56,809 nt of DNA, taken from positions 1 through 56,809 of the forward strand of contig CBFGIY010000004.1 of the NCBI GenBank assembly GCA_965648935.1, read 5' to 3'. The translations under genes were made by a program, and so were the position numbers. The DNA comes from a candidate division WOR-3 bacterium. Its GTDB lineage: Bacteria > Hydrothermota > Tepidihabitantia > Tepidihabitantales > Tepidihabitantaceae. Each line of letters begins with the position of its first letter. Position 1 is the stretch's first letter. Below are positions 2 to 49,546 of this stretch, one piece after another. Under the pieces are notes generated by a model, which saw only the letters and a list, made by a program, of their open reading frames with translations, made no database searches and was not told the origin of the DNA.

Positions 2-1735
2 GCCCTGATGCTGGAGAAGAACCCGGGCCTGCTGCCCGAAGAGGTCGACGAGATAATGCAGAACTCGGTGCTGCCCCGCGGCAGCCAGCCGAAGAACAAC
101 ACCTACGGCACGGGCCGGATTGACGCGATGCTGTGCATCGAGAACACGCCACTGCCGGGCGCGCGCCACGACGTGGCGGTTGGGCCGGTGCTTGCGCCGG
201 CGGACAAGATTGACCCGATGACGCCGCTGGCGCCGATGGTGGTGGTGAAGAACCGGGGGACGTATCCGGAGCCTTCGGTGAGCGTGTACTGCAAGGTCGA
301 GTCGCTGGGCACGCAGATATACAGCCGGAACGTGACGGTGAGCCTGGACTCGGCCGGGACCGACACGGCGGTCTTCCCGAACTGGAACGTCGGGCCGGGC
401 AGCCAGACGTACGAGCTGACGTTCTGGCACACGCTGGCCGGCGACACCAACCGGCGCAACGATACGATAACCAAGTCGACCACGACCCGGGGCCATGACG
501 TGCGCGTCGCCGGGATGAACATCGGCGGCCGCGTGCGCGCCAACAACACGATCACCCCGCGCATCACGCTCGCGAGCACCGACTACACCGAGCGCGGTTT
601 CCGGGCCTGGTGCGTGGTTGACTCGGCCGGGACGACCGTGTACCGCGACAGCGTCGATGTCGACAGCGTGCCCGAGATGGGCTCGCGCAGTTTCCCGTTC
701 CCGTCGAGCTGGAGCGTCGGGCCGGTCGGCGCTTCATACGGCGTCGCGATGTGGCACAACTGCGGGCCGGACCAGAACCGCGCCAACGACACGCTGCGCG
801 GCACCGCGACCGCGGTCGATCAGATCCGCGTGCTGTGGATATACTCCGACTACGGCGCGCCCGAGACCACGCTGGCGGTGCGCCTGCGCGCGCTGGGCGA
901 TTCGATCGAGTTCTTCGACGGCCAGGCCGGGACGCCGACCCTGGCCCAGCTCCAGCCCTACGACGCGGTCGGGGCGCACTCGAACTACCCTTATCAGAAC
1001 GCGACCGCGCTCGGCAACGTACTTGCCGACTATGTGGACGCGGGCGGCGGCGTTGTGCTGGGCACGTTCAGCTTCTCGACCGGCTGGGCGATGGCCGGAC
1101 GGATAATGACCGGCAGCTACCAGACGATAGTGCCGGGTAACAACCCGTACAACAACGTGACGCTGGCCTGGTACCAGACCGGTCACCCGATCTTCGCCGG
1201 GGTTGACTCGGTGCGCGAGTACTACGCGGGTGACGGCCCGTTCGCGGCCGGCGCCGAGTCGGTGGCCAAGTGGTCGGACGGCCGGCGCTACGTGGCGGTG
1301 AGCGCGAACCAGAAGGTGGCCGGCGTGAACTCGTACCCGGGCATCTACAGCGCGAACCCGCCTCAGCGCGGCGGTCACTGGGCGCTGGTGTTCCACAATG
1401 CGCTAGCCTTTGTCTCCGGCAGCCAGACCGGCATCAAGGGCTTTGACCCTCTGGCGCCGGTTCTGCGCGTCGAGCTGGTCACTTCGCCCAACCCGGCCCA
1501 GGGCCTTGTCGGTATCACCTATGCCGTGCCGATGGGCGGACCGGTCGAGCTGGGCGTTTACGACCTGAGCGGACGGCTGGTGCGCACGCTGGTGCGCGGC
1601 AGTGCCCCGAGCGGGGTCAGCCGGCTGAGCTGGGACCGGACCGACGACGCGGGCCGCGTGGTCGCGGCCGGAGTGTACGTCTGCCGGCTCACCGCGGGCG
1701 AGAAGTCGGAGAGCCGCAAGCTCGTCATCCGCTAG
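2..1735 (+). CDS. secreted multidomain protein, 5'-truncated at window edge (tail of a subtilisin/S8-like peptidase domain, two CARDB-like repeats, C-terminal FlgD-Ig/T9SS-type sorting domain)
   Basis: The frame is open to the window start. The N-terminal YGTGRIDA stretch resembles the end of S8 peptidase domains. Two repeats of about 100 aa end in D.N..NDT. The C-terminus (VTSPNPAQG...LGVYDLSGRLVRTL...WDRTDDAGRVVAAGVYVCRL...RKLVIR) matches the Por_Secre_tail/FlgD-Ig pattern. Confidence 0.6.
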   Translation, partial: ALMLEKNPGLLPEEVDEIMQNSVLPRGSQPKNNTYGTGRIDAMLCIENTPLPGARHDVAVGPVLAPADKIDPMTPLAPMVVVKNRGTYPEPSVSVYCKVESLGTQIYSRNVTVSLDSAGTDTAVFPNWNVGPGSQTYELTFWHTLAGDTNRRNDTITKSTTTRGHDVRVAGMNIGGRVRANNTITPRITLASTDYTERGFRAWCVVDSAGTTVYRDSVDVDSVPEMGSRSFPFPSSWSVGPVGASYGVAMWHNCGPDQNRANDTLRGTATAVDQIRVLWIYSDYGAPETTLAVRLRALGDSIEFFDGQAGTPTLAQLQPYDAVGAHSNYPYQNATALGNVLADYVDAGGGVVLGTFSFSTGWAMAGRIMTGSYQTIVPGNNPYNNVTLAWYQTGHPIFAGVDSVREYYAGDGPFAAGAESVAKWSDGRRYVAVSANQKVAGVNSYPGIYSANPPQRGGHWALVFHNALAFVSGSQTGIKGFDPLAPVLRVELVTSPNPAQGLVGITYAVPMGGPVELGVYDLSGRLVRTLVRGSAPSGVSRLSWDRTDDAGRVVAAGVYVCRLTAGEKSESRKLVIR

Positions 1736-37593: not shown

Positions 37594-37940
37594 ACCCGAA
37601 GGTTGAAACCCTCCGCTCGCTCGAGGAGTTCGACCACGTCCTGCGGGACATCGAGACCGAGGACTACCAGTCGGTCGGCTTCGGCGGAGTCAAGGCCTCG
37701 GAGGAGTTCATCAAGCTGGCCGAGCGCGAACGCGCCAAGCTGACCAAGAAGGTCGACCCGCGGCTGCTGGCGCAGTACGAGCGGATAATGAAGCGCTACG
37801 GCGGGCGCGTTGTCGTACAGGTCATCAAGGAGTTCTGCGGCGGCTGCTACGTCAAGCTGCCTTCAGAACTGGCCGCCCGCTGCCGCACCGAGCTGGTCAG
37901 CTGTCCCAACTGCGGCCGTTTTCTCTACTACGTGAAGTGA
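37590..37940 (+). CDS. C4 zinc-ribbon protein (COG1579-like C-terminal part)
   Basis: The C-terminus is CGGCYVKLPSELAARCRTELVSCPNCGRFLY. ATGA overlap with ptsN. Confidence 0.7.
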   Translation: MNPKVETLRSLEEFDHVLRDIETEDYQSVGFGGVKASEEFIKLAERERAKLTKKVDPRLLAQYERIMKRYGGRVVVQVIKEFCGGCYVKLPSELAARCRTELVSCPNCGRFLYYVK

Positions 37941-39901
37941 CCCCGGCCGCCGGGCCGGAAGCGCCCGAGGGGAGGGCTGTGTCCAGGCTTCGTCCGGTCC
38001 TGTTGTTTCTAGTCGCCGTCCTGGCCTGCCACCGGCCGGGCTGGGAGACCACGCTGACCGTGCCGGTCATGTCCCGCCGCTTCTCGATACAAGACCTCGG
38101 GTTCGTGCCGTTCATCGGCCATGTCCGGCCCGGTCCCAACGAAGTCCTTCAGTTCGACATCGATTACTCGCTGGACACGATCTGGGCCGATGAGCTGCTG
38201 GGCCGGTCTGCCGGCGAAGGCCGGACCGAGTTCATCCTGCCCGACTTCGTGATTTCGCCAGTCGGAACGGCGGCTTCGGCCCTGCCGGTCGGGCAACTGG
38301 TCGGTCTGCCGGTGCCCGACTCGGTCCTGACACCGGTGCCGCGGTTTGCGGCCGACACGCTGCTCGCCGCGACCATCACCGGCGTGGACTCGCTGTTCGT
38401 GGCGAGCGCCGTGGTCCGCATCCGGGTTGACAACCGCACCGACCTTGACTTCGATTCTGTCCGCGTCGAGCTTCCCGGTGTCGGTGCGCCGGCGTTCGCC
38501 GCCGCGGTGCCGGCTCGCTCCAGCGGCGTCCGGCGCAGCGTGGCAGCGGCGGTGCTCATGACATCGTGCCTGCCGATTTCGGTTCGGGCTGTCTGTCCCG
38601 GCAGCGGCGGGCAGCCGGTCTGGCTCCGGGCGCGGGATTCGGTGATTGTGACCGTTACCGTCGACTCGCTGAGGGCTGAATGGGGTCGGCTGTCGCTTGG
38701 ACAGCACGCCGGCGCCGAAGCGGTGCGCTTCGACACGCTCTATCTTAGCGGCCGGCATCGCATCAGGATCGATTCGGCGCACCTGGCCAGCGGCATCGTG
38801 ACGGTCGCACTGGCCAATGACCTGCCGTTCGGGGTGCGCTGTTCGCTGGCACTGGAGGAGGTCGGTCAGACCCACATGCTTGACCTCGGCGCGCGCGATT
38901 CGCTGGGCTGGCTGGTGAGCCTGAACGATGCCGTGTACCGGAACATCAACCGGGATTCGAGCCAGCTGACTCTCGCCTGCCGGGTCAGCGGCCGACTGAC
39001 CGGCGAACCGGTCGAACTGGGACCAGACGACGGGCTCAGGGTCGCGATGCAGGCAGAGAGCGTTGGCTTCAGCTACGCTCAGGGCCGCGTGCTCGATACC
39101 ATATGGAGTTCGTTGCTCAGCGACAGCCTGTTCTGGTCGGTGCCGGAGTCGCTGCGCGGGCTACCGGTGCGCCTGAGCTCGGTCAGGCTGATCGGTCGAG
39201 CCTTCTCCGCCTTCAATGCCGTTGGCGTGTTCGAGACTGAGTTCGCGGCGCGGGCACCGGGCGGCGCTACCGCGGTCGAATCGCTGCGCTTCAGCCTGGC
39301 CGCGGGCACGCCCGAGCAGCCGATGGGCACCGGGTTCGAGTGCGAGATCGCGCCGCTGCTCAACATCGTGCCGGATCGTCTGAGCGTCAGCGGCCGGGTC
39401 GGCGTGTTTGGAGCGGTCGAGCTCTGGGACCGGTCCTGGGTCACGAGCCATGGCTCAGCTGTGGTGCCGCTTCGGCTCAAACTGATGCCTTTCACGTACT
39501 CGGTCGGACCCTGGGCCGTGCCGCTGGATTCCGCGTTGCGCAGGTTCACCCGGAGCTACATCCGCGGCGCCGAGCTTGAAGCCGGAATGTCGAACCATCT
39601 TCCTCTCAGCGTCCGGGCCGAGATTCTGCTCTGGTCGGCCGGGCAGGATACTGCGCGCGTACCGATATCGCTGCCGGCGCCCCGCCTGGAGCCATCCGGC
39701 GGCTGGGTTATGGCGCCGCTGGATACACTGGTTAGAGCCGGGCTCGACAGTATCGGAGTGCAGGTTGTCGCGCAGGAGCCGTGCAGCGCGAAGCTCAGGC
39801 TGTACTTCGAGGAAACCGACACCGTCGCGCTGCGTTCGGTCGACTACTTCGAGGTCTCGCCCGCTCTGCTGCGTCTTGACGTGGACATACAGGAACGCTG
39901 A
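37937..39901 (+). CDS. hypothetical lipoprotein, 654 aa
   Basis: RPVLLFLVAVLAC lipobox-like signal. I recognise no family. GTGA overlap with the upstream gene. Confidence 0.5.
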   Translation: MTPAAGPEAPEGRAVSRLRPVLLFLVAVLACHRPGWETTLTVPVMSRRFSIQDLGFVPFIGHVRPGPNEVLQFDIDYSLDTIWADELLGRSAGEGRTEFILPDFVISPVGTAASALPVGQLVGLPVPDSVLTPVPRFAADTLLAATITGVDSLFVASAVVRIRVDNRTDLDFDSVRVELPGVGAPAFAAAVPARSSGVRRSVAAAVLMTSCLPISVRAVCPGSGGQPVWLRARDSVIVTVTVDSLRAEWGRLSLGQHAGAEAVRFDTLYLSGRHRIRIDSAHLASGIVTVALANDLPFGVRCSLALEEVGQTHMLDLGARDSLGWLVSLNDAVYRNINRDSSQLTLACRVSGRLTGEPVELGPDDGLRVAMQAESVGFSYAQGRVLDTIWSSLLSDSLFWSVPESLRGLPVRLSSVRLIGRAFSAFNAVGVFETEFAARAPGGATAVESLRFSLAAGTPEQPMGTGFECEIAPLLNIVPDRLSVSGRVGVFGAVELWDRSWVTSHGSAVVPLRLKLMPFTYSVGPWAVPLDSALRRFTRSYIRGAELEAGMSNHLPLSVRAEILLWSAGQDTARVPISLPAPRLEPSGGWVMAPLDTLVRAGLDSIGVQVVAQEPCSAKLRLYFEETDTVALRSVDYFEVSPALLRLDVDIQER

Positions 39902-39926
39902 TGAGTGCCGGCGTGCGATTGCGTCA

Positions 39927-41207
39927 TTGTGTTGTAGTGCCGGCCGGTGGAGCGGCCGGGTCAGACCGCGACACGGGCGGTGCCGAAGACTCGTGATCCT
40001 GCTGTTGATTCTCGCGCTGTGGGATCCGACGCTGTCGGGCGCTTTGCCCGATCCGGTACTGAGCAGCGGGTGCGATGCGGTCGCGGATAACCCCGCCCTC
40101 CTCGGGCTGGACAGCGCGCCGCCGGCATCGTTCCGTTTCCTGGGGTTCGGCGCAGGCGGACAGAGCGACGCTCTCACCCTGCCTTTCCTGTATCGCATCG
40201 CCACGACCCCGGTGCATCTGGACAGCGCCGCCAAGCAAGGATTGCTTGAGCGGATGGCCGACCGGTCGGGCAGTATTCTGACCGGCACCGAACTCAAGGT
40301 AGTTCACTTCCAAGCGTGGCACTTCGGCGGCGGGGTGACCCTTCAGGACCGCGTCAGAACGACCATACCGCGTGATGTCGCCGAACTCGTGTTCTTCGGC
40401 AACGAGCTCGGGCGGACCTACCTGCTCGACGGCATCGGACAGGATACGCTCCAGGTCCTGCGCGTTGCCGGTGCCGCCGGGTTTCCCATTCTGACCGCAG
40501 AGCGTCTCAAGGTGCACGCAGGCATCTCTGCGTCATGGCTGCGCGGGTTCGGATACGCAGAGGTGCTTCACTCCGCGGGCTGGCTGCTGACCACGGACCG
40601 GTACGCCTCGCTTAGCTACGAGCGTCAGACACGCCGCGCAAGCGGTGGCGACGGTGTCGCGCTGGGCTATGGCATTGCCATTGAGCTCGATTCACAGTGG
40701 CGCGCGGCCGCCGCTCTGGCCGATGCGCCGGGCGTGATATGGTGGTCCAGAGGATGCTTCAGACGCGACTATGCAGTCGCCGGTGATTCAATCAGCGTCC
40801 TGCGCCTCCTGCAACTCGGCAGTCTGGACTCGGTGTTGCTCGCGCGTGACACGACGCAGCCCACAGCCGGATTCGCGACCGCGTTGTCGCCGCGGTTCAG
40901 CCTGGGCGTGGGTTTTGTCGGCAGCGATGTGGTCCGGGCAGGGCTGGTCGCCGCTGCCGGCGGCGGCAGCGCGGGTGTTGAAGTGCCCGGCAGCTTCGCG
41001 GCTGCCCGGGTGATGCTGCGCGTGTTGCGCACTGCCGCGGTCGGTGCCGATGTCGGCTGGCGCTCCGGCGCCGGACCGTTCGGTCAGGTCGCCCTTGGCG
41101 GCAGGTTCCACGGACTGACTGCGGCGCTCACTCTGGGCGCTTCGCTGGGTACGTCAGCCGCGGTGAACGACGCCAGCGCTGGCTTGAGTCTCGGCTATAC
41201 CTACTGA
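39927..41207 (+). CDS. hypothetical outer-membrane beta-barrel-like protein
   Basis: Signal-like RRLVILLLILALWDPTLSGA, an early NPALLG motif as seen in FadL/PorP-like barrels, G/A-rich alternating strands, and a C-terminal aromatic LSLGYTY. The start is uncertain (TTG 39927 or GTG 39993). Confidence 0.45.
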   Translation: MCCSAGRWSGRVRPRHGRCRRLVILLLILALWDPTLSGALPDPVLSSGCDAVADNPALLGLDSAPPASFRFLGFGAGGQSDALTLPFLYRIATTPVHLDSAAKQGLLERMADRSGSILTGTELKVVHFQAWHFGGGVTLQDRVRTTIPRDVAELVFFGNELGRTYLLDGIGQDTLQVLRVAGAAGFPILTAERLKVHAGISASWLRGFGYAEVLHSAGWLLTTDRYASLSYERQTRRASGGDGVALGYGIAIELDSQWRAAAALADAPGVIWWSRGCFRRDYAVAGDSISVLRLLQLGSLDSVLLARDTTQPTAGFATALSPRFSLGVGFVGSDVVRAGLVAAAGGGSAGVEVPGSFAAARVMLRVLRTAAVGADVGWRSGAGPFGQVALGGRFHGLTAALTLGASLGTSAAVNDASAGLSLGYTY

Positions 41208-41215
41208 CCCGAGGG

Positions 41216-41974
41216 ATGCTGGCACTTCTGCTCTGCGCGGCATTCGAGTACGCCAGTTGGACTGCACCGGTCGCAACCGGCCTGGCCGGGGTGAGGTTAC
41301 AGAACTGGCGTCTTGCCCGGGCCAGTCCGGCGCAGTCGGCATCGGCGCCGCGGTTCGCCGGCCTGGTCGGATATTCGCGGCCGTTTGGCCTGGCCGGTCT
41401 GGACTGCGGTCGTGTCGCTCTGGCCGGGCGCGTTGGTCCACTCGGCCTCTTTGGCGGGGTGGAGGCGTTGCATCTTGCCGGCTACAGCGAGAGCGACTTC
41501 CATCTCGCGGTCGGCACAGAGGTGGGCACTCTGGCGGTGGGTACCGGCCTCCACCTGTACTTGCTCGGTGACCAGCAGAGAGGCGGTGTGGTCTCGCCTG
41601 GCTTCGACATTGGTGCGCGCTGGCGCACAGAGCGATTCGCCGCAGGCATCGACGCTCTGCGGCTGAATTCACCACGGCTGGCTGGGGACGAGCTGCCCGC
41701 GCGGCTGGTCCTGTCCGGCTCCTGGCAGCCGGTGCCGCAGTTTGCCGCAATGGGCGAATTGAGCCGGGAGAGCGGCGGCGAGGATGCCGCCTTGTCCTGC
41801 GAGTTTCGTCCGGTCGAGGCGGTCGGGTTGAGAGCCGGGATCGCTGTCCTGCCGATGCGCTACGCGGCCGGCATCGGCGTGGCGCTTAGCCGGTTTGACC
41901 TGGGCTATTGCTACGAGTTGAATCCGGCAATCGGTTCGAATCACCTCGTTGAGTTAGTGGTTTCGTGGCAGTAG
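41216..41974 (+). CDS. hypothetical small outer-membrane beta-barrel-like protein
   Basis: 252 aa with a short hydrophobic N-terminus, repeated G-rich strand pairs, and a C-terminus HLVELVVSWQ. Confidence 0.45.
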   Translation: MLALLLCAAFEYASWTAPVATGLAGVRLQNWRLARASPAQSASAPRFAGLVGYSRPFGLAGLDCGRVALAGRVGPLGLFGGVEALHLAGYSESDFHLAVGTEVGTLAVGTGLHLYLLGDQQRGGVVSPGFDIGARWRTERFAAGIDALRLNSPRLAGDELPARLVLSGSWQPVPQFAAMGELSRESGGEDAALSCEFRPVEAVGLRAGIAVLPMRYAAGIGVALSRFDLGYCYELNPAIGSNHLVELVVSWQ

Positions 41975-43701
41975 CTCTTGTTCTTGTTTGCTTCGCGCCG
42001 GGACTGCTCGAAGCACACGGCCCACCAGTGCTTGAGGATGATCTGGCCTGGCTGGCCGAAGCCGAGGCATTGCTGGCCGCACCGATGGACGTCAATTCGG
42101 TCAGGCTGGAAGATTTGCTCACGATTCCATGGTTACGGCCGTCTGTGGCGGCCGCGATAGTGAGGGCTCGCGACTCGCTCGGCCGTTTTGAGAGCTTGCG
42201 ACAGCTTGCAGACGTGCCCGGAATCGATCAATCGACGCTTGCCGTACTGGAGGTCCTGCCTCGTTCAGCGCAGATGCCTGTTCGCGCCATGATGACAGCG
42301 GGTGCAGCAACCGATTCTTTGCATGGAGGGTGGCGCAGCCTCAGTAGCATTGTCAGGCTGAGGGCTTCTGCGCAACCCTGGGATGCTTCTCTGCTGGCTG
42401 AGAAAGACCCGGGCGAGGCGAGCTGGGCAGACTATGTTGCGGCCGGGGTGGAGTATCGTCTGCCGCGACTGAGGATGTTGTTAGGGAACTTCACGCTGGC
42501 CTGCGGGCAGGGCCTTGTGCTCAGCGGTCCAGCCGGGCGCAGTCGCTATGGTCCGGGCAACGCTGGTGCAGGTAGGGTCTTGAGGCTTGCCACCAGCGTC
42601 GACGAGACGCGCTATCTGCGCGGGGTCGGTGTCGCCCGGGAGTCGGGGCGCGCGAGTCTGCAGGTGTGCTTGTCATCGGCCGCGCGTGACGCCAGGCTCG
42701 GACCGGATGGCAGCGTGGTCGCGTTCCGGCCAGGCGGACGGCACGACGATTCGGCATCGCTGGCGCAGAGGCGGCAAGTCGCCGAGTGGTCGGCCGCGGT
42801 CGCCGGGGGCGTCGCCATGACGGGTTGGGGTCTGGGCGGCTGCATTGCCGCCAGCCGGTTCGACCGCACCGTCGCGCCCCCCGATACGCTGTACGCGTTT
42901 GTCGGCCGCGACCTGGTGGCGGGCTCGGTGTCTGCCGGTGGCAGGGTCGGCCCGTACCAATTGGGCGTGGAGCTGGCTGGTTCAACGCCGCGCGGGCTCG
43001 CGGTCGCGACCTTCATTGACGGCACTTGGCAAGACCTGGATGCTGAGGCGACGGTGCGCTGGCGCTCGGACCGGTTCTTCGCGCCATACGGCCGCTGGAC
43101 GGCGCTTTCTGGCAGGCGTCGTCGGTTTGACGGGTCTGGAAACCTGCGCTATCGACTTGCGCCCGCTACGATTGGCGTTTCCGGCTCCACGTATCGCGAT
43201 TCCGATGCTGAGTCGCTGCCGGGGAGGCTCGAAGCGGTGGTCCAGCAGGACCTGGGGCGGGTCGACCTGGAGTTGCGTGCCGGGCAGCGGTACCGCGGCA
43301 ATCTCCCGACTTTGACCACCACTCGACTCACGGCGCGCATCAGGGCAAGTTCGGCCTGGTCAGCACAGGCTGTGGTTGCCTATGAGGCTGAGCCGAGATC
43401 GGGCGGGAGCGGGATGGTGACCGGACTGCGCGCCTGGGGCAAGACTGGCCCTGTTCGACTCGGTGTGGCCGCCGCGCGCTTCACCATCCCGGGTGGGGAT
43501 GTCCGGATGAGCTGGTATGAGCCGGGTCCACGTCGCACTGGCCGTTCTTTCTCAGCAGACACCAGCTGTTGGCGTGTTGCGGCAACAGCCGGTGTGGAGT
43601 TGCGTCAATTGCGCTTGGCCTGCGGCGTTGCCGGCTCACCGTTGGGGCCAGCCCGAGCAGAGCTGTCGGCCGAGGTCGAGGTGGGACTCAAACGTGGTTG
43701 A
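41965..43701 (+). CDS. ComEA-like helix-hairpin-helix domain fused to a large beta-rich (barrel-like) region
   Basis: An N-terminal signal, then VNSVRLEDLLTIPWLRPSVAAAIVRARDSLGRFESLRQLADVPGIDQSTLAVL (HhH pair). About 450 aa of R/G-rich alternating strands follow. Confidence 0.55.
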   Translation: MAVALVLVCFAPGLLEAHGPPVLEDDLAWLAEAEALLAAPMDVNSVRLEDLLTIPWLRPSVAAAIVRARDSLGRFESLRQLADVPGIDQSTLAVLEVLPRSAQMPVRAMMTAGAATDSLHGGWRSLSSIVRLRASAQPWDASLLAEKDPGEASWADYVAAGVEYRLPRLRMLLGNFTLACGQGLVLSGPAGRSRYGPGNAGAGRVLRLATSVDETRYLRGVGVARESGRASLQVCLSSAARDARLGPDGSVVAFRPGGRHDDSASLAQRRQVAEWSAAVAGGVAMTGWGLGGCIAASRFDRTVAPPDTLYAFVGRDLVAGSVSAGGRVGPYQLGVELAGSTPRGLAVATFIDGTWQDLDAEATVRWRSDRFFAPYGRWTALSGRRRRFDGSGNLRYRLAPATIGVSGSTYRDSDAESLPGRLEAVVQQDLGRVDLELRAGQRYRGNLPTLTTTRLTARIRASSAWSAQAVVAYEAEPRSGGSGMVTGLRAWGKTGPVRLGVAAARFTIPGGDVRMSWYEPGPRRTGRSFSADTSCWRVAATAGVELRQLRLACGVAGSPLGPARAELSAEVEVGLKRG

Positions 43702-44530
43702 CTATCACGTTCATCCCGGCTTCTCGCCCGATGCCGCCGGCGACCTGGGCGAATTCTGTGACCGGGCGGTCCGCATCGGGCTGTCCGAGCTGTGTTTCAC
43801 GACACACTATGAACCCGACCCCGCGCGAGCCGGCCGGGAATGGGTCAATGTCGCCGGGCAACGCGTGTCCATGCAGGCTGGCTGGGTTGAGCGCTATCTG
43901 TCCGAGATTGACGCTCTGCGCGGACGTTACAGGTCGCTAGTGATTCTGGCCGGCGTTGAGGTAGGTTATGAGCCGGGCCTGGAGGAAGCGATACGAAGCT
44001 TCGTCGTATGCCATCCGTTCGACTTCGTCATCGGCGCGGTACACGCACTTGACCACGTCGCCCTCACGTCTGGAGAGGAGGTTGACGACTTCAAGCGGGT
44101 GCATGGACAGCGCTCTCCGCATGAGGTCGCAGCGCAGTACCTCGGCCATCTTGCCGCACTCGCTGAGAGCCGGCTCTTTGACAGCGTTGCCCACCTGGAC
44201 GTCTATCGCAAGTACCTCCAGACAGTCTATGACGAACGATTCGCAGTCGCTCTGAAAGCGCAGCTTCCGGGCTTCCTTGCTCGTCTGGCCGCGTCCGGCT
44301 GTGCCCTTGAGGTGAATACCTCGGCGTTGCGGCGCGGCTCGGCCGAGCCATACCCGGCATGGGCCATAGTGGACCAGGCTCGTGCGGCCGGGGTCGAGCG
44401 GTACACGGTCGGCAGCGATGCCCATCGGCCGGAAGATGTCGGTCAGGGCATTGAGCTCGCGATCGACGGCCTTCTGAACCGAGGGCTTCGGCCGGCGCGC
44501 TTCAGGCGGCGCCGTATACTGCCAGACTAA
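43694..44530 (+). CDS. PHP-domain phosphoesterase (histidinol-phosphatase HisJ family-like)
   Basis: (M)VDYHVHPGFSPDA...CFTTHYE...GVEVGY...GAVHAL...SVAHLD...GSDAH metal-ligand pattern. GTG 43694 overlaps the upstream stop. Confidence 0.75.
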   Translation: MVDYHVHPGFSPDAAGDLGEFCDRAVRIGLSELCFTTHYEPDPARAGREWVNVAGQRVSMQAGWVERYLSEIDALRGRYRSLVILAGVEVGYEPGLEEAIRSFVVCHPFDFVIGAVHALDHVALTSGEEVDDFKRVHGQRSPHEVAAQYLGHLAALAESRLFDSVAHLDVYRKYLQTVYDERFAVALKAQLPGFLARLAASGCALEVNTSALRRGSAEPYPAWAIVDQARAAGVERYTVGSDAHRPEDVGQGIELAIDGLLNRGLRPARFRRRRILPD

Positions 44531-44575: not shown

Positions 44576-44603
44576 TTGACTTGGCAGGCACCCGAACTAG
44601 AAT
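44576..44603 (+). promoter_or_regulatory. promoter of the DUF2229/activase/Memo-AMMECR1 operon, ATG 6 nt after the -10
   Basis: TTGACT (44576-44581), N16, TAGAAT (44598-44603), tcgctg, then ATG 44610. There is no SD. Confidence 0.6.
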
Positions 44604-44609
44604 TCGCTG

Positions 44610-45497
44610 ATGCGAGTTGGACTGCCACGGGCACTGCTGTATCATCGTTACGGCAGGTTCTGGGAGCACTTCCTGACCGGGCTCGGCGCCGAGGTCGTCG
44701 TGAGCCGACCGACCGACAAGCTGCTGCTGCAGGCCGGCGTCGGGCTCGTCCCCAGCGAGGTCTGCCTCCCGATCAAGATCGCCGCCGGGCACATCGCTGA
44801 CCTTGCCGACAAGGTCGATGCGGTCTTCCTGCCGCGGCTGATGTGGCTCGAGGACAGTCTGTATGCGTGCCCCAAGATGATCGGCATAGTGGACATCGCC
44901 CGGATGATACTCAAGGGAGGCACACGGCTCATAGCACCGGTGGTGAAGGGCGACTTCGCGGGGCCGCATCTTGCCGCCGGTCTGGCGCTGAGCCGCAGTC
45001 CGCTGCGCGTCGCCGGCGCCTACCGGCGTTCGCGGCACCTTATCAACGGCAACCGGTCGTTGCCTGAACTCCCGGCCGGCGAGAAGCGCGTTGCGGTGAT
45101 CGGCCACTTCTACAACGTCCTGGACGAATACGTGTCGCGGGTAATCATTGACACCTTCCGCACCCATGGCTACAGGACGCTCACCAAGGACGACCTGCCC
45201 GAGAGCTTGTTGCACAGCCGGGCCGGTTTCGCAACCAATATCCGCTGGGTGTACGAGCGCCAGCTCTACAACGCATTTCGATACCTGGTCGACAAGGTCG
45301 CCGGCGTCTGCGTGATCGTGTCAATGGGTTGTGGCCCTGATTCCCTGGTCGCCGAGTTCATGAATGACGAGGCGCGCGCGCTGGGGGTGCCGTTCATGCA
45401 GCTGGTGCTTGATGAACATACCGGCGCCGCAGGGCTGATAACGCGTATCGAGGCCTTCATAGAACTGGCGCAGCGGCGCGGCCGCAGAGCGGCGTAA
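44610..45497 (+). CDS. acyl-CoA dehydratase activase-related protein (DUF2229-like), part 1
   Basis: MRVGLPRALLYHRYGRFWEHFLTGLGAEVVVSRPT...EVCLPIKIAAGHI...CPKMIG resembles the uncharacterised domain normally fused to BcrAD/HgdC-type activases. Confidence 0.6.
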   Translation: MRVGLPRALLYHRYGRFWEHFLTGLGAEVVVSRPTDKLLLQAGVGLVPSEVCLPIKIAAGHIADLADKVDAVFLPRLMWLEDSLYACPKMIGIVDIARMILKGGTRLIAPVVKGDFAGPHLAAGLALSRSPLRVAGAYRRSRHLINGNRSLPELPAGEKRVAVIGHFYNVLDEYVSRVIIDTFRTHGYRTLTKDDLPESLLHSRAGFATNIRWVYERQLYNAFRYLVDKVAGVCVIVSMGCGPDSLVAEFMNDEARALGVPFMQLVLDEHTGAAGLITRIEAFIELAQRRGRRAA

Positions 45498-45506
45498 CCG
45501 GGTCTG

Positions 45507-46556
45507 ATGAAGGCCAGCTTCCCGTGGCTCGGCTATGACACCTATGCGCTCAAGACGTTTCTCGAGGAGCTGGGCGCCGAGGTCATCCTGCCGCCGGCGA
45601 ACTCGAAGCGCACGCTCGAGCTCGGCGTGCTCCATTCACCCGAGCTCATCTGCATGCCGTTCAAGATCACGCTCGGCAACTTCCTTGAGGCGCTCGACTG
45701 CGGTGCCGACACGCTGTTCATGGCCGCGGGAGCCCGCAAGTGCCGGTTCGGGTACTACCACTACCTCCAGGACCGCGCTTTGAACCGTCTGGGCAGAGCG
45801 TGTCGGTTTGTTCCGGTAACGCAGTACTCGCCGTTCGAGTTCGTCTTCCGGCTGATGCCCGGCGTCATGGGTGTTACGCCGCTGCGGGTTCTGCGGGCGC
45901 TGTTGTTGATGATCGAGAAGAGCAGGCTCACCCAGGACTTTCGTGAGCTTCTTAACCGGCGACGCGCGGTCGACTTCGCGGGTGCGGAGCGCGCCAAAGG
46001 TGAGGCACTGGCGCTCATCGACGGCGCCCGAACCCATCGTCAGATGCGCACAGCCCGACGCGAGGTTCGCGCGATGTTTCCCGCGAGCGGCCGTTCTCCT
46101 GCGCTCAGGGTTGCGCTCGTCGGCGAGATCTACTTCATGATCGAGCAGTTCGCCAATCAGGAGATAGAGAAGGAACTGGGCAGGCTAGGAGTTGAGGTGC
46201 TGTTCGAGCGGAGCCTGTACCGGCATCTGCGCCACCTGCTTGGAATAGACCCGCGCTTTCGGCGGTCCGAGCGGCTCGCCAGACGCTACCTGCAAGAGTC
46301 GCCGGGGGGCGAGGCGATGAGGACGGTAGGCGAGGCCGTGCATTACGCCGAGATCGGGGTGGACGGTATCGTACACGTCTTTCCATTCACGTGTATGCCG
46401 GAAAACATCGCGCTTGAGGCCCTGCAGAAGCTTGCCGAAGACTCCGGGGTGCCGGTCCTGTCGCTGTCCTTTGACGAGCACGCGTCACGCACCGGCCTTC
46501 TGACGCGACTGGAGGCTTTTGTCGACCTGCTGAAACGGAGAAAGCGAATTGGCTAA
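45507..46556 (+). CDS. acyl-CoA dehydratase activase-related protein (DUF2229-like), part 2
   Basis: FPWLGYDTYALKTFLEELGAEVILPP...ELICMPFKITLGNFLEAL has the same architecture as the preceding gene. The C-terminus FPFTCMPE...LSFDEH...RLEAF parallels the C-terminus of part 1 (MGCGPDS...LVLDEH...RIEAF). Confidence 0.6.
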   Translation: MKASFPWLGYDTYALKTFLEELGAEVILPPANSKRTLELGVLHSPELICMPFKITLGNFLEALDCGADTLFMAAGARKCRFGYYHYLQDRALNRLGRACRFVPVTQYSPFEFVFRLMPGVMGVTPLRVLRALLLMIEKSRLTQDFRELLNRRRAVDFAGAERAKGEALALIDGARTHRQMRTARREVRAMFPASGRSPALRVALVGEIYFMIEQFANQEIEKELGRLGVEVLFERSLYRHLRHLLGIDPRFRRSERLARRYLQESPGGEAMRTVGEAVHYAEIGVDGIVHVFPFTCMPENIALEALQKLAEDSGVPVLSLSFDEHASRTGLLTRLEAFVDLLKRRKRIG

Positions 46557-47502
46557 GGGATTCCTGGGCATCGATGTCGGCTCGATATCTACCAAGGGCG
46601 TAGTCCTCGATAGCTCGTATCGCGTTGTCGCCGAGCGCTACCTGCGAACTCAGGGGAACCCGATCAACTCGATTCGTCGGCTGCTGCGTGAGCTGGGCGA
46701 GGCAACCGACCCGGCGCTGCAGATAGCCGGCGCGGGCACCACCGGCTCTGCCCGGCGGCTGGCCGGCGTGATGATCCGGGCCGACATCGTCAAGAACGAG
46801 ATCATTGCCCACGCTGTTGCTGCAGGTCACTTCCACCCCGACGTTCAGACCGTGCTTGAGATCGGCGGTCAGGACTCCAAGATCATCATCCTGCGTGACG
46901 GCATCCCGGTTGACTTCGCGATGAACACCGTCTGCGCTGCGGGGACCGGGAGTTTTCTCGACCACCAGGCGACACGTCTCGGCATTCCGATCGACGAGTT
47001 CGGAGGCCGGGCGCTGAAGGCCGTGAACCGCGTCAACATTGCCGGCCGTTGCACGGTATTTGCCGAGAGCGACATGATTCACAAGGCGCAGTTGGGCATC
47101 GCGACCGAGGACATACTGGCCGGTCTGTGCGATGCCATCGTGCGCAACTACCTCAACACCGTTGCCAAGGGCAAGGAAATCAGGCCGCGGATTCTGTTTC
47201 AGGGCGGCGTGGCGGCCAACGTCGGAGTGCGCCGTGCCTTCGAGACCGCACTCGGACATGAGGTCACAATCCCCGACCACTTTCTCGTGATGGGCGCGGT
47301 TGGCGCGGCGATGCTGGCGGCCGAGGAGGTAGGTTCGACAAGCTCAACCTTCGCCGGATTCGAGGCTGCGGCAGTCGATTTTCAGAGCCGGGCATTTGAG
47401 TGTGACGGTTGCCCGAACCGCTGCGAGGTTGTCGAGACACTGCGATCCGCGGAGGTCATCGACCGCTACGGTGACCGATGCGGCAAGTGGTCGCGGGCAT
47501 GA
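46549..47502 (+). CDS. BcrAD/BadFG/HgdC-type ATPase (CoA-substrate-specific enzyme activase)
   Basis: FLGIDVGSISTKGVVLD, GAGTTGSARRL, EIIAHAVAA, VLEIGGQDSKII, NTVCAAGTGSFLD and GRCTVFAESD form an ASKHA fold with the cluster-bridging Cys positions. TTG start with an 8-nt overlap. Confidence 0.85.
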   Translation: MAKGFLGIDVGSISTKGVVLDSSYRVVAERYLRTQGNPINSIRRLLRELGEATDPALQIAGAGTTGSARRLAGVMIRADIVKNEIIAHAVAAGHFHPDVQTVLEIGGQDSKIIILRDGIPVDFAMNTVCAAGTGSFLDHQATRLGIPIDEFGGRALKAVNRVNIAGRCTVFAESDMIHKAQLGIATEDILAGLCDAIVRNYLNTVAKGKEIRPRILFQGGVAANVGVRRAFETALGHEVTIPDHFLVMGAVGAAMLAAEEVGSTSSTFAGFEAAAVDFQSRAFECDGCPNRCEVVETLRSAEVIDRYGDRCGKWSRA

Positions 47503-47573
47503 GCTGTTCGGGCTGGCTGAAGCTGGCGGTGCTGGTAGTGGCGGGCGCGGCCTGTGCCGGTCCAAAGGAGGGC

Positions 47574-48962
47574 ATGATGGTCAGAAAGCCGGTTGTGGCC
47601 GGTCAGTTCTATCCGGGCGATTCCGCGCAACTGGCGGCCGAGGTTGATGCGATGCTCGCGGCGGTGGAGCGACCGGCGGTCAGCGGAAGTCCAGTTGCGA
47701 TTCAGGTCCCGCACGCAGGCTATCAGTTTTCCGGGCCCACTGCGGCGCATGCTTTTCGGCTGCTGACAGGTCTCGACTCTGTAACGATCGTGATGCTCGG
47801 GCCGAGTCACAGAGCGATGATCGACCGGGCCGCGGTATGGTCGCGCGGGGCGTGGCGCACGCCGCTCGGCGACGTCCCGGTCGACGAGCAGTTCGCGGCG
47901 CGGCTGCTCGAAGCCGAGTCATTCTGTGCAGAACTGCCCCAGGCGCACGCTCTGGAACACTCGCTTGAGGTCCAGCTGCCGTTCCTGCAGCGGACTCTGC
48001 GGCACTTCGCGATTGTGCCGGTGATGCTGCTTGAGCCCAGTTACGATGAGTGCGAGCGTCTCGGACGGGCGATCGTGACTGCTGCACAAGGACAGCGCAC
48101 GCTCGTGCTGGCTTCGACAGACCTCTATCACGGTTACTCCTATGTCGAGGCGCGCCGGTACGATAGCACAACCCTGCGGAACGTGGTGGGGCTTGAACCA
48201 CGGCGGCTGTACGACGCCCTGGCGACCGGAGATGCCCAGGCCTGTGGTGGCTATCCGGTTGTCGTGGCGATCCTTGCTGCACGCGGTCTGGGCGCGGACA
48301 CGGCGGCGCTCCTGGCTCAGACCAACTCCAACGATGTCACCGGCGAGCGGGGCGGCTATTGCGTCGGGTACAGCGCTGTCGCCTTCCTGCGGGCCGGGTC
48401 CGACAGGACTGACGAACTGACACGCGATGAGCAGAAGGCGTTGCTGACTCTGGCGCGACAGTCCATCGAGAGCCGACTGCGCGGCGGCAGCCCCGCACCG
48501 TCAAGCGGTCATTCGGCACGGTTCGCCGAGAAGCGAGGCGTGTTCGTGACGCTGCACCGCAAGGGTGAGCTGCGCGGGTGCATCGGTTACCCTGAGGCGG
48601 TCAAGCCGCTGGGCGAGGCGGTCAGGGAGATGGCCGTCGCGGCCGCGACCGAGGACCCGCGCTTCGTGCCGGTCTCAGCAGACGAGCTTGGGGACATTGA
48701 TATTGAGATAACAGTCTTGTCGCCGTTGTTTCCGATCACGCCCGAGGCAGTCCAAGTCGGCGTTCACGGGCTGGTGATAAGGAAGGCAGGCCGTTCCGGG
48801 CTGCTTCTGCCTCAGGTGCCGGTGGAGCAGGGCTGGAACCGCGAGGAATACCTGGCGGGAGTCTGCCTCAAGGCCGGGCTGCCGCCTGACGCCTGGCGAG
48901 CGCCCGATGCCCGGCTGTTTGGATTCACCGGCCAGGTGTTCGGCGAACGGGACAGCGAGTGA
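47574..48962 (+). CDS. fusion of AmmeMemoRadiSam system protein B (Memo-like) and protein A (AMMECR1)
   Basis: The N-terminal half has VRKPVVAGQFYPG, VPHAGYQFSGPTAA, MLGPSH, EHSLEVQLPFLQ and STDLYH. The C-terminal half has GVFVTLHRKGELRGCIGY and HGLVIRKAGRSGLLLPQV. AAAGGAGGG (47564-47572) precedes ATG 47574/47577. An upstream ATG at 47499 is possible but would add a non-homologous hydrophobic extension. Confidence 0.85.
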   Translation: MMVRKPVVAGQFYPGDSAQLAAEVDAMLAAVERPAVSGSPVAIQVPHAGYQFSGPTAAHAFRLLTGLDSVTIVMLGPSHRAMIDRAAVWSRGAWRTPLGDVPVDEQFAARLLEAESFCAELPQAHALEHSLEVQLPFLQRTLRHFAIVPVMLLEPSYDECERLGRAIVTAAQGQRTLVLASTDLYHGYSYVEARRYDSTTLRNVVGLEPRRLYDALATGDAQACGGYPVVVAILAARGLGADTAALLAQTNSNDVTGERGGYCVGYSAVAFLRAGSDRTDELTRDEQKALLTLARQSIESRLRGGSPAPSSGHSARFAEKRGVFVTLHRKGELRGCIGYPEAVKPLGEAVREMAVAAATEDPRFVPVSADELGDIDIEITVLSPLFPITPEAVQVGVHGLVIRKAGRSGLLLPQVPVEQGWNREEYLAGVCLKAGLPPDAWRAPDARLFGFTGQVFGERDSE

Positions 48963-48974
48963 TTCGGCTGACGA

Positions 48975-49002
48975 TTGACACGCCGCATGACTGACCTATC
49001 AT
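48975..49002 (+). promoter_or_regulatory. promoter, ATG 7 nt after the -10
   Basis: TTGACA (48975-48980), N16, TATCAT (48997-49002), cgcgcat, then ATG 49010. It starts 13 nt after the Memo-AMMECR1 stop. Confidence 0.55.
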
Positions 49003-49009
49003 CGCGCAT

Positions 49010-49546
49010 ATGAGCGCGAATCAAGAAACTGAGCGATTTGCCCAACTCGCCGGGCTTGACCGGGGGCAGCTTGTTGACCTCCTGCAGGATGCGGCCAAGA
49101 ACTGGCTCGCCCACGACGGGCTGTGGTTTCAGGCGGTCGAGCGTGCGCACGGGATGGATGCGGCGATAGCGGCAGATACCGAGGCGTGGCGCAGGTTCAC
49201 CGAGGTTGAGGCGAAGCGGATAATGCAGCGCCACGGTATCGCGCCGGGCGGGGGCATTCCCGCGCTGGTTCGTGCGCTGTCCTACCGCCTCTACGCGTAC
49301 ATCAACGAGCAGTTGGTGGTTGAGCAGGATGACCGGCGCGTGGTTTTCCGGATGGTCGATTGCCGCGTTCAGTCGGCCCGCAAGCGGCGCGGTCTGCCCG
49401 ACTTTCCGTGCAAGTCAGTAGGCCTGGTCGAGTATGCGGGCTTCGCCCGGACAATCGACGAGCGCATCAGGACGCGTTGCCGGCACTGCCCGCCCGATGC
49501 GCATCCTGACGACTCCTGGTGCGAGTGGGAGTTCTACCTCGAGTGA
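49010..49546 (+). CDS. hypothetical cytosolic Cys-rich protein (ATC-hydrolase/DUF6125-like by resemblance)
   Basis: 178 aa. WLAHDGLWFQAVE near the N-terminus and a C-terminal Cys pattern DC...FPC...RCRHC...WCEW. The family call rests on memory only. Confidence 0.4.
   Translation: MSANQETERFAQLAGLDRGQLVDLLQDAAKNWLAHDGLWFQAVERAHGMDAAIAADTEAWRRFTEVEAKRIMQRHGIAPGGGIPALVRALSYRLYAYINEQLVVEQDDRRVVFRMVDCRVQSARKRRGLPDFPCKSVGLVEYAGFARTIDERIRTRCRHCPPDAHPDDSWCEWEFYLE

Follow-up and report, generated by a model that had tools for sequence, protein, structure and literature searches.

We describe a four-gene block on the + strand of contig CBFGIY010000004.1 of a candidate division WOR-3 bacterium, in which two paralogous DUF2229/HGD-D proteins (D1 and D2) and an HgdC-type activase (ACT) are encoded directly upstream of a fused Memo-AMMECR1 (AmrB-AmrA) protein. 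Throughout, the window refers to the whole analyzed stretch of this genome, which is 56,809 nucleotides (nt) or 56.8 kb long; the block lies within positions 44576-49002 (Table 1), and all four open reading frames (ORFs) of the original prediction are present at their coordinates and on the same strand. We refer to D1-D2-ACT as the trio or the cassette and to the Memo-AMMECR1 protein as the fusion. Domains were assigned with Pfam and NCBIfam profiles, an AlphaFold2 model of D2 was compared with PDB structures, and the gene neighborhood was followed through about 90 related loci (numbered with the prefix L), namely 80 genome loci and additional loci from metagenomes. The arrangement is a lineage-specific, new combination of known families. 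We lean toward the view that it consists of two separable modules that became neighbors once, in the ancestor of one WOR-3 clade, and are co-transcribed here, rather than of a variant of the AmmeMemoRadiSam system.

Table 1. Features of the four-gene block (window positions; aa, amino acids)
Feature	Position	Strand	Description
Promoter of D1, TTGACT-16-TAGAAT	44576..44603	+	sigma-70-type, 10/12 consensus matches
D1, 295 aa	44610..45497	+	full DUF2229 and short C-terminal HGD-D fragment
D2, 349 aa	45507..46556	+	DUF2229 fragments and HGD-D
ACT, 317 aa, TTG start	46549..47502	+	BcrAD_BadFG / TIGR00241
N-terminal extension of fusion, MSCSGWLKLAVLVVAGAACAGPKEG	47499..47573	+	signal-peptide/lipoprotein-like, in frame
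Shine-Dalgarno AAGGAGG for internal start	47565..47571	+	precedes ATG 47574 or 47577
Fusion, 462 aa counted from internal start	47574..48962	+	Pfam, NCBIfam
Memo domain	~47589-48374	+	within fusion
AMMECR1 domain	~48447-48941	+	within fusion
Promoter of next gene (DUF6125, ATG 49010), TTGACA-16-TATCAT	48975..49002	+	11/12 consensus matches

The predicted assignment of ACT to the HgdC/BcrAD family is borne out by PF01869 (BcrAD_BadFG, E=3.4e-50) and by TIGR00241 (193 bits against a cut-off of 125), and its PDB matches are HgdC (1HUX, 8e-37), HadI (4EHT) and MbdQ (9GAI_D). The gene overlaps the D2 stop by 8 nt and has GGAG about 10 nt upstream of its TTG codon. Two cysteines, C129 and C168, located in the motifs CAAGTG and RCTVFAE, are invariant in 30/30 sequences; reading the motifs rather than a residue-level alignment, we take them to be the counterparts of the HgdC cysteines that ligate its bridging [4Fe-4S] cluster. 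Invariance in 30/30 sequences is also found for a C-terminal tail of the form C285-x2-C288-x3-C292...C311, which comprises residues 285-312 (47401-47484), lies beyond the BcrAD_BadFG domain, and is kept in cassettes of a metagenome-assembled genome (MAG) of Bacillota and of other lineages. The tail may be an additional metal or cluster site specific to the D1-D2-ACT cassette.

D1 matches the DUF2229 profile over its whole length (E=3.9e-36) and ends in a fragment of HGD-D, and D2 matches DUF2229 in fragments (E=2.6e-13) together with HGD-D (E=1.7e-8). A BLASTP alignment of the two proteins (E=7e-20, 25% identity) agrees with the Pfam results, and the description of the pair as DUF2229-like paralogs can stand. 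Three cysteines of D1 (C52, C87 and C241) are invariant in 27 sequences and a fourth, C234, is present in 26/27; these residues are also kept in cassettes of other lineages. In D2, C49, C79 and C296 are invariant. The D1 sequence found no match among PDB sequences. Because the D2 sequence gave marginal matches alone (E 0.06), D2 was compared by fold. Its AlphaFold2 model, with a predicted local distance difference test score (pLDDT) of 86.8, has 13 PDB fold matches at E<=1e-3, which are solely DCCP (7YYL, 6ENO), HadC (3O3M_B), BzdNO (8S02) and MbdON (9G87), the best being 7YYL_A (DCCP) at E=1e-7. D1 and D2 are predicted to be the two halves of a heterodimeric iron-sulfur catalytic component, in which D2 is placed in the HgdAB/BcrBC-type catalytic pair by the fold of its model and D1 by Pfam and paralogy. 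Given the homology of ACT, the invariant cysteines of D1 and D2 and the fold of the D2 model, we assign the trio, as an enzyme of three subunits, to the benzoyl-CoA reductase / 2-hydroxyacyl-CoA dehydratase ("archerase") type.

The original prediction regarded these modules as usually fused into one large protein of unknown function, and both parts of that statement need revision. Split genes are common in their own right: D1 has 2324 representative relatives, of which 321 clusters reach E<=1e-30, and the best 150 relatives range from 164 to 770 aa, nearly all having 290-380 aa and a few, which are D1D2 fusions, having 690-770 aa. As for function, the fused proteins of about 1400 aa, which have the order Act1-Act2-Red1-Red2, are the plasmalogen synthase PlsA/PlsR and the glycerol ester reductase Ger (PMC13159169, PMC12838417, PMC9702350). 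No protein of PlsA/Ger size occurs among the best 150 relatives of D1, and since none of these exceeds 770 aa the cassette forms a separate subfamily. The same D1-D2-ACT order is found without Memo or AMMECR1 in L085 and L086 (WOR-3), L088 (the Bacillota MAG), L089 and L091, and L090 has a fused D1D2 gene and ACT with neither Memo nor AMMECR1 nearby. In L086, L088, L089 and L091 the cassette stands amid housekeeping genes, and all of the stand-alone cassettes (L086, L088-L091) retain the cysteine residues and the ACT tail. D1-D2-ACT is thus an autonomous and widespread unit without a characterized member, a subfamily of its own.

Compared by published domain pattern, the cassette shares three Pfam families (BcrAD_BadFG, DUF2229 and HGD-D) with PlsA/PlsR and Ger, and both are anaerobic, ATP- and Fe-S-dependent types of radical enzyme. 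The pattern of Ger from T. maritima is BB-DHDDH (PMC13159169); by Pfam, D1 reads D+H and D2 reads D+D+H, which together give D-H-D-D-H and are collinear with the reductase half of Ger. The differences are that PlsA/PlsR and Ger have two fused activase domains whereas the cassette has a single activase gene, whose product is presumably a homodimer, that they are built as one large polypeptide or as a PlsA+PlsR pair whereas here three genes for 295, 349 and 317 aa follow each other as Red1-Red2-Act, and that ACT bears the additional four-cysteine tail.

The second group of relatives comprises the 2-hydroxyacyl-CoA dehydratases and class I benzoyl-CoA reductases (HgdAB+HgdC, HadBC+HadI, BcrABCD, BzdNOPQ and MbdONPQ). 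ACT is homologous to HgdC, HadI and MbdQ and keeps the two cluster cysteines, the catalytic part is likewise a heterodimeric pair with three cysteines per subunit, and the D2 model has the fold of HadC, BzdO/N and MbdO/N. However, the sequence similarity of D1 and D2, both members of the DUF2229 branch, to these enzymes is marginal (E 0.06 or none). No genes of CoA-ester metabolism are linked to the cassette in any examined locus. The third relative is the double-cubane cluster protein DCCP with its reductase DCCP-R (6ENO, 7YYL), which includes the best structural match of the D2 model and also has an HgdC-type ATP-dependent reductase as its partner. It differs in that one DCCP sequence fills chains A, C and D of 7YYL, whereas the cassette has a pair of paralogs, and the double_cubane model NF040772 gives 17.4 bits for D2 against a cut-off of 350 and no match for D1.

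The fourth gene of the block encodes, as predicted, a Memo domain followed by an AMMECR1 domain (Pfam E=6e-54 and E=9.6e-56, respectively). The NCBIfam models of the AmmeMemoRadiSam system also recognize it, TIGR04336 (AmrB) with 254.5 bits against a cut-off of 26 at residues 36-303 of the 494-aa ORF and TIGR04335 (AmrA) with 179.7 bits against a cut-off of 99 at residues 321-488. PDB matches are PH0010 (1VAJ, 9e-40) and MEMO1 (3BCZ/7KQ8, 8e-19), and invariant residues include PHAG, SH, EHS.E, DLYHG and ACGG in Memo and LRGCIG in AMMECR1. Fusions in this B-A order are numerous, with 5838 matches at E<=1e-20 and both domains present in all of the best 120, and many of them are already named "AmmeMemoRadiSam system protein B/A" (JGI, NCBI). 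The part of the prediction that did not hold is the start of the protein: the frame is open upstream of 47574, and 47574 or 47577 is a second start.

The upstream extension is hydrophobic and terminated by a cysteine, and begins at ATG 47499 or at the alternative ATG 47478. Of the homologous loci, 83 are distinct; in 79 of these a hydrophobic extension is preceded by a start codon, and 63 show the lipobox-type order of a basic n-region, a hydrophobic h-region of about 10-15 residues and a cysteine directly after it; in the WOR-3 fusions the lipobox residues before the cysteine are often not the canonical [ASG]. The model of the fusion (pLDDT 87.6) has a helix at residues 5-18 and then a disordered linker ahead of the Memo domain, and where the fusion occurs apart from the trio it has its own TTGACA-16/17-TAnGAT promoter just 5' of the extension. 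Because of the conserved hydrophobic extension, the promoter placed 5' of it, and the helix and linker in the model, the long form of the fusion looks exported and is probably lipid-anchored. We also considered that the extension could be an artefact of high GC content and rejected this explanation, as the extension is present, hydrophobic and preceded by a start codon at 35-40% GC and, where the fusion stands alone, has its own promoter.

The internal ATG or GTG of the fusion is preceded at 5-7 nt by GGAGG, which is kept regardless of codon phase. A Shine-Dalgarno-like 5-mer lies 4-16 nt 5' of the internal ATG/GTG in 50/53 distinct loci, compared with 12/413 (2.9%) of the other in-frame ATGs of the same genes. 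At the protein level the same segment appears as a conserved "P-K/R-E" before the internal methionine; a protein motif was rejected because GGAGG is conserved whatever its codon phase, which argues for a Shine-Dalgarno site. Two fusion products, one with and one without the signal, are therefore likely, and the short isoform starting at 47574/47577 would presumably be cytoplasmic. We find the export signals and the two starts of the fusion more surprising than the four-gene arrangement.

Two further observations concern the surroundings of the fusion in other genomes. In the low-GC WOR-3 loci L031, L033, L037, L038 and L039 a small zinc-ribbon ORF (YCPxCKxKM...HKKRKWxCPKC) is found about 100-200 nt 5' of the fusion, and in L037 it is in frame with the fusion. 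In L055, L060, L073 and L074, one of which is labeled Stahlbacteria and three of which are unclassified, a gene that by eye belongs to the TtcA-like PP-loop ATPase family lies directly 3' of the fusion. Memo contexts are said to touch nucleotide-base modification, and a TtcA-like neighbor would fit that earlier suggestion.

The likeness of the fusion to the AmmeMemoRadiSam system lies in its passing the A (TIGR04335) and B (TIGR04336) models, in its signature residues, and in the fact that the same fusion follows amrS in sister phyla. The difference is the radical SAM partner (TIGR04337), in whose upstream position D1-D2-ACT is found here, together with the export or lipoprotein-like signal and the second, internal start of the fusion in the window. 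In 19 loci of other phyla (KSB1, Calditrichota, Latescibacterota, Zhuqueibacterota, Omnitrophota and others) amrS (TIGR04337, 411 bits) stands directly 5' of the fusion, and is often preceded by a DUF362 gene. In contrast, the 56.8-kb window contains no coding-like ORF with the radical SAM motif CX3CX2C, as the prediction of a missing radical SAM neighbor implied, and amrS was not found within 10 kb of the fusion in any WOR-3 locus. When an AmrS profile made from 18 loci was compared with a set of 5.8 billion proteins, the best 120 of at least 7999 matches included no WOR-3-named protein; the named AmrS among those 120 were all from KSB1, Calditrichota, Latescibacteria or Zhuqueibacterota.

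In the amrS-bearing phyla the canonical system looks extracytoplasmic, because AmrS and the DUF362 protein have twin-arginine translocation (Tat) signals and the fusion has a lipoprotein-like signal. A twin-arginine N-terminus (SRRQFL, TRREFF or similar) is present in 13/16 AmrS sequences and in 11/12 DUF362 proteins, with the Tat-bearing AmrS neighbors located in L043-L078 (for example, L071:5570-6715, L044:8753-9856 and L059:8741-9883). No export signal was found in D1, D2 or ACT. An activase driven by ATP has to reside in the cytoplasm, so that of the two forms of the fusion the short one alone could encounter D1, D2 and ACT. A literature search that did not cover Burroughs et al. 2019 found no paper on AmrS with a Tat signal or on an extracytoplasmic radical SAM system, and likewise none on export signals of the fusion.

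At the upstream end of the block, the -10 box of the D1 promoter ends 6 nt 5' of ATG 44610 and no Shine-Dalgarno sequence is present, in agreement with the predicted leaderless promoter, so that the operon start is leaderless or nearly so. The scan yielded 4 promoter-like sites where 0.7 +/- 0.9 were expected. The D1 promoter is kept in 27/28 related loci as TTGACT/A-16/17-TA[GCA]AAT; there too the -10 box stops 5-10 nt short of the start codon and no Shine-Dalgarno sequence is present. At the other end, the promoter of the next gene begins 13 nt 3' of the stop codon of the fusion, as had been predicted, and marks the downstream end of the unit; L001 has a comparable TTGACA-16-TAACAT 7 nt ahead of the start of its DUF6125 gene. 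Within the unit, a terminator or an independent promoter between ACT and the fusion, at 47503-47573, had been named in advance as evidence that would count against the operon. A terminator-like site and a promoter-like site were sought in this interval of the window and neither was found. The RNA fold of the interval is ordinary (z=-1.46), and no structured RNA with an Rfam match occurs in the window. ATG 47499 overlaps the ACT stop as ATGA. From this overlap and the lack of a terminator or promoter at 47503-47573 we infer that the four genes of this genome are co-transcribed from the promoter ahead of D1.

Leaderless or near-leaderless transcripts seem to be the rule in this genome, because the window has 13 sites of the form TTGACN-16..18-TANNNT, and 9 of them are followed after 5-11 nt by the start codon of an ORF that is 80 aa or longer. 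Examples, given as site and start codon, are 6588->6622, 10612->10647, 27810->27775 (- strand), 48975->49010 and 56439->56400 (- strand).

The trio is found directly 5' of the fusion in 28 loci, of which 26 are distinct, all of WOR-3 type. Their fusions are at least 55% identical to that of the window, the GC content of the genomes varies from 46 to 68%, and the flanking genes vary on both sides. The recurrence of Memo/AMMECR1 beside BcrAD_BadFG/DUF2229 genes that the original prediction proposed as a check is thus observed, and the block is real and conserved. However, all cases belong to a single WOR-3 clade and represent a single event rather than independent recurrence: in the tree of the fusion all trio-adjacent loci form one clade, which indicates a single origin of the adjacency. 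Inside that clade the adjacency was lost at least 3 times (in L012, in L015+L023 and in L021+L027). The complete WOR-3 chromosome CP070680 carries the trio at 0.18 Mb, with the fusion at 1.94 Mb, and in a sister low-GC WOR-3 clade the trio lies 5-6 kb 5' of the fusion in two loci and was not seen in the others. In four loci that still have the block (L013, L014, L016 and L017) the stretch from ACT to the fusion contains a strong promoter (for example, TTGACA-17-TACCAT). On the fusion tree these loci branch near lineages that lost the adjacency, which suggests stepwise uncoupling. In the lower branch of the tree, which contains Cloacimonadota, Stahlbacteria-type loci and both WOR-3 clades, no amrS is found beside the fusion.

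No description of AMMECR1 linked to an activase or to 2-hydroxyglutaryl-CoA / 2-hydroxyacyl-CoA dehydratase was found in a literature search that did not cover Burroughs et al. 2019, and within that range the statement that the arrangement had no known description holds.

These observations are best accommodated, in our judgment and by a modest preference, if the cassette and the fusion are separate modules. The modules would not need each other and the activase cassette would be no substitute for AmrS, because the cassette is autonomous, the adjacency is confined to one clade in which it has been lost repeatedly, and four loci have separate promoters. In this scheme ACT would form a homodimer bridged by a [4Fe-4S] cluster and, powered by ATP hydrolysis, would inject a low-potential electron into the D1/D2 heterodimer, in which the three invariant cysteines of each subunit would hold one [4Fe-4S] cluster each. 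D1/D2 would then reduce or dehydrate a carbonyl or ester substrate by chemistry of the ketyl-radical type. A membrane-lipid ester is our best, if tentative, guess for the substrate, because the closest characterized relatives by domain family are the reductase halves of PlsA/PlsR and Ger, while the cassette is a subfamily of its own. The fusion would be made in two forms, a long one with the signal that starts at or near the ACT stop and a short one that starts from the Shine-Dalgarno site.

Several points weigh against this scheme. The independence of the modules is deduced from their distribution. The block is intact in 28 loci despite the changing flanks and the span of fusion identities (down to 55%) and GC contents (46-68%), a persistence that exceeds what neutral synteny usually shows. 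In many loci the start codon of the long form either overlaps the ACT stop or lies right beside it, a sign that translation may be coupled, and the conserved internal start offers a cytoplasmic isoform that is able to meet D1, D2 and ACT. Finally, with no amrS in the WOR-3 loci and none with a WOR-3 name among the best 120 profile matches, amrS may be absent genome-wide in this clade.

Some of these points are also what one would expect if the cassette and the fusion acted in turn on one class of substrates, such as membrane lipids, with co-transcription coordinating the two and neither standing in for a radical SAM enzyme. The cassette would then perform an ester-to-ether reduction of the Ger/PlsA kind at the cytoplasmic face, and the lipid-anchored long form of the fusion would act on a lipid or isoprenoid at the membrane. 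A shared pathway of this kind would explain why the block persists while its flanks vary and why the fusion overlaps the ACT stop as ATGA; it is also in line with the fact that D1+D2 are collinear with the reductase part of Ger and PlsA, which are lipid enzymes, and the lipoprotein-like anchor would set the fusion at the membrane. Burroughs et al. (2019) are said to have described the gene contexts of Memo-AMMECR1 and to have tied Memo contexts to the modification of aliphatic isoprenoids. However, the adjacency has a single origin, has been lost repeatedly and is accompanied in some genomes by a promoter of the fusion's own, and the cassette occurs without Memo/AMMECR1 nearby in L088-L091, outside WOR-3, as well as in other WOR-3 genomes. 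The assignment to lipids is itself weak, with no protein of PlsA/Ger size in the best 150 relatives of D1, and no lipid-biosynthesis genes are linked to the block. We consider the shared pathway unlikely, if still worth keeping in mind.

The original prediction suggested that the activase module replaces or complements the radical SAM initiator, that is, that the archerase cassette supplies the radical or low-potential electron in place of AmrS in this WOR-3 clade; in one version, the cassette would work with the short cytoplasmic isoform while the long isoform keeps an extracytoplasmic role. The underlying observations of a four-gene unit and of a missing amrS neighbor stand, and the trio occupies precisely the place that amrS has in the 19 sister-phyla loci, directly upstream and on the same strand. 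No amrS was seen in the window, within 10 kb of the fusion in any WOR-3 locus, or under a WOR-3 name in the best 120 of at least 7999 profile matches, and strong conservation of the internal start, which would give the cytoplasmic isoform, is seen in the lineages that lack amrS beside the fusion. Nevertheless, the adjacency of amrS is missing across a much larger clade, mostly without the trio beside the fusion, and there was no direct swap of amrS for the trio, because amrS had already gone from beside the fusion when the trio arrived. In many lineages the trio is autonomous, and the fusion is apart from the trio in CP070680 and others. AmrS (by its Tat signal) and the fusion (by its Sec or lipoprotein signal) look extracytoplasmic, where an activase that depends on ATP could not be, and D1/D2 have a complete catalytic architecture of their own instead of being merely an electron donor. 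For these reasons replacement, with or without the division of labor between isoforms, appears improbable to us.

The genes around the block differ from locus to locus. Directly 5' of D1 in the window is a gene for a PHP/HisJ-family phosphatase (43517-44530). L001-L003 share this gene, as does L085, which lacks the fusion, and L004 and L087 do not have it. Its listed ORF carries a long N-terminal extension, and the real start is probably further downstream. On the 3' side of the fusion, the DUF6125 gene (49010-49546, E=1e-80) has its own leaderless-type promoter, and the same gene follows the fusion in L002, L003 and L006, whereas in L001 a Na+/H+ exchanger gene is inserted between the two. 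Further upstream, three large listed ORFs (37607-39898, 39576-41207 and 41216-41974) are without a Pfam match. Because the first two share sequence in different frames, at most one of them is likely to be real; at positions matching those ORFs, L001 and L002 carry unannotated genes of similar size (about 630-640 and 404 aa).

The AmmeMemoRadiSam system and the stand-alone DUF2229 cassette are both widespread in anaerobes and neither has a known function, so that the link between them in WOR-3 would, if it is functional, offer a handle on both systems at once. If replacement were true, the Amme/Memo chemistry could be driven in a second way that does without a radical SAM enzyme. As the evidence stands, the value of the locus lies in the compact cassette, the export and Tat signals and the double start rather than in the link between the modules. 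The cassette, with three cysteines in D1, three in D2 and a four-cysteine-tailed activase, is a natural minimal version of the PlsA/Ger-type enzymes that would be easily expressed. The export of Memo-AMMECR1 together with the Tat signals of AmrS would put a radical SAM system outside the cytoplasm, and the conserved second translation start would yield two isoforms of the fusion in different compartments.

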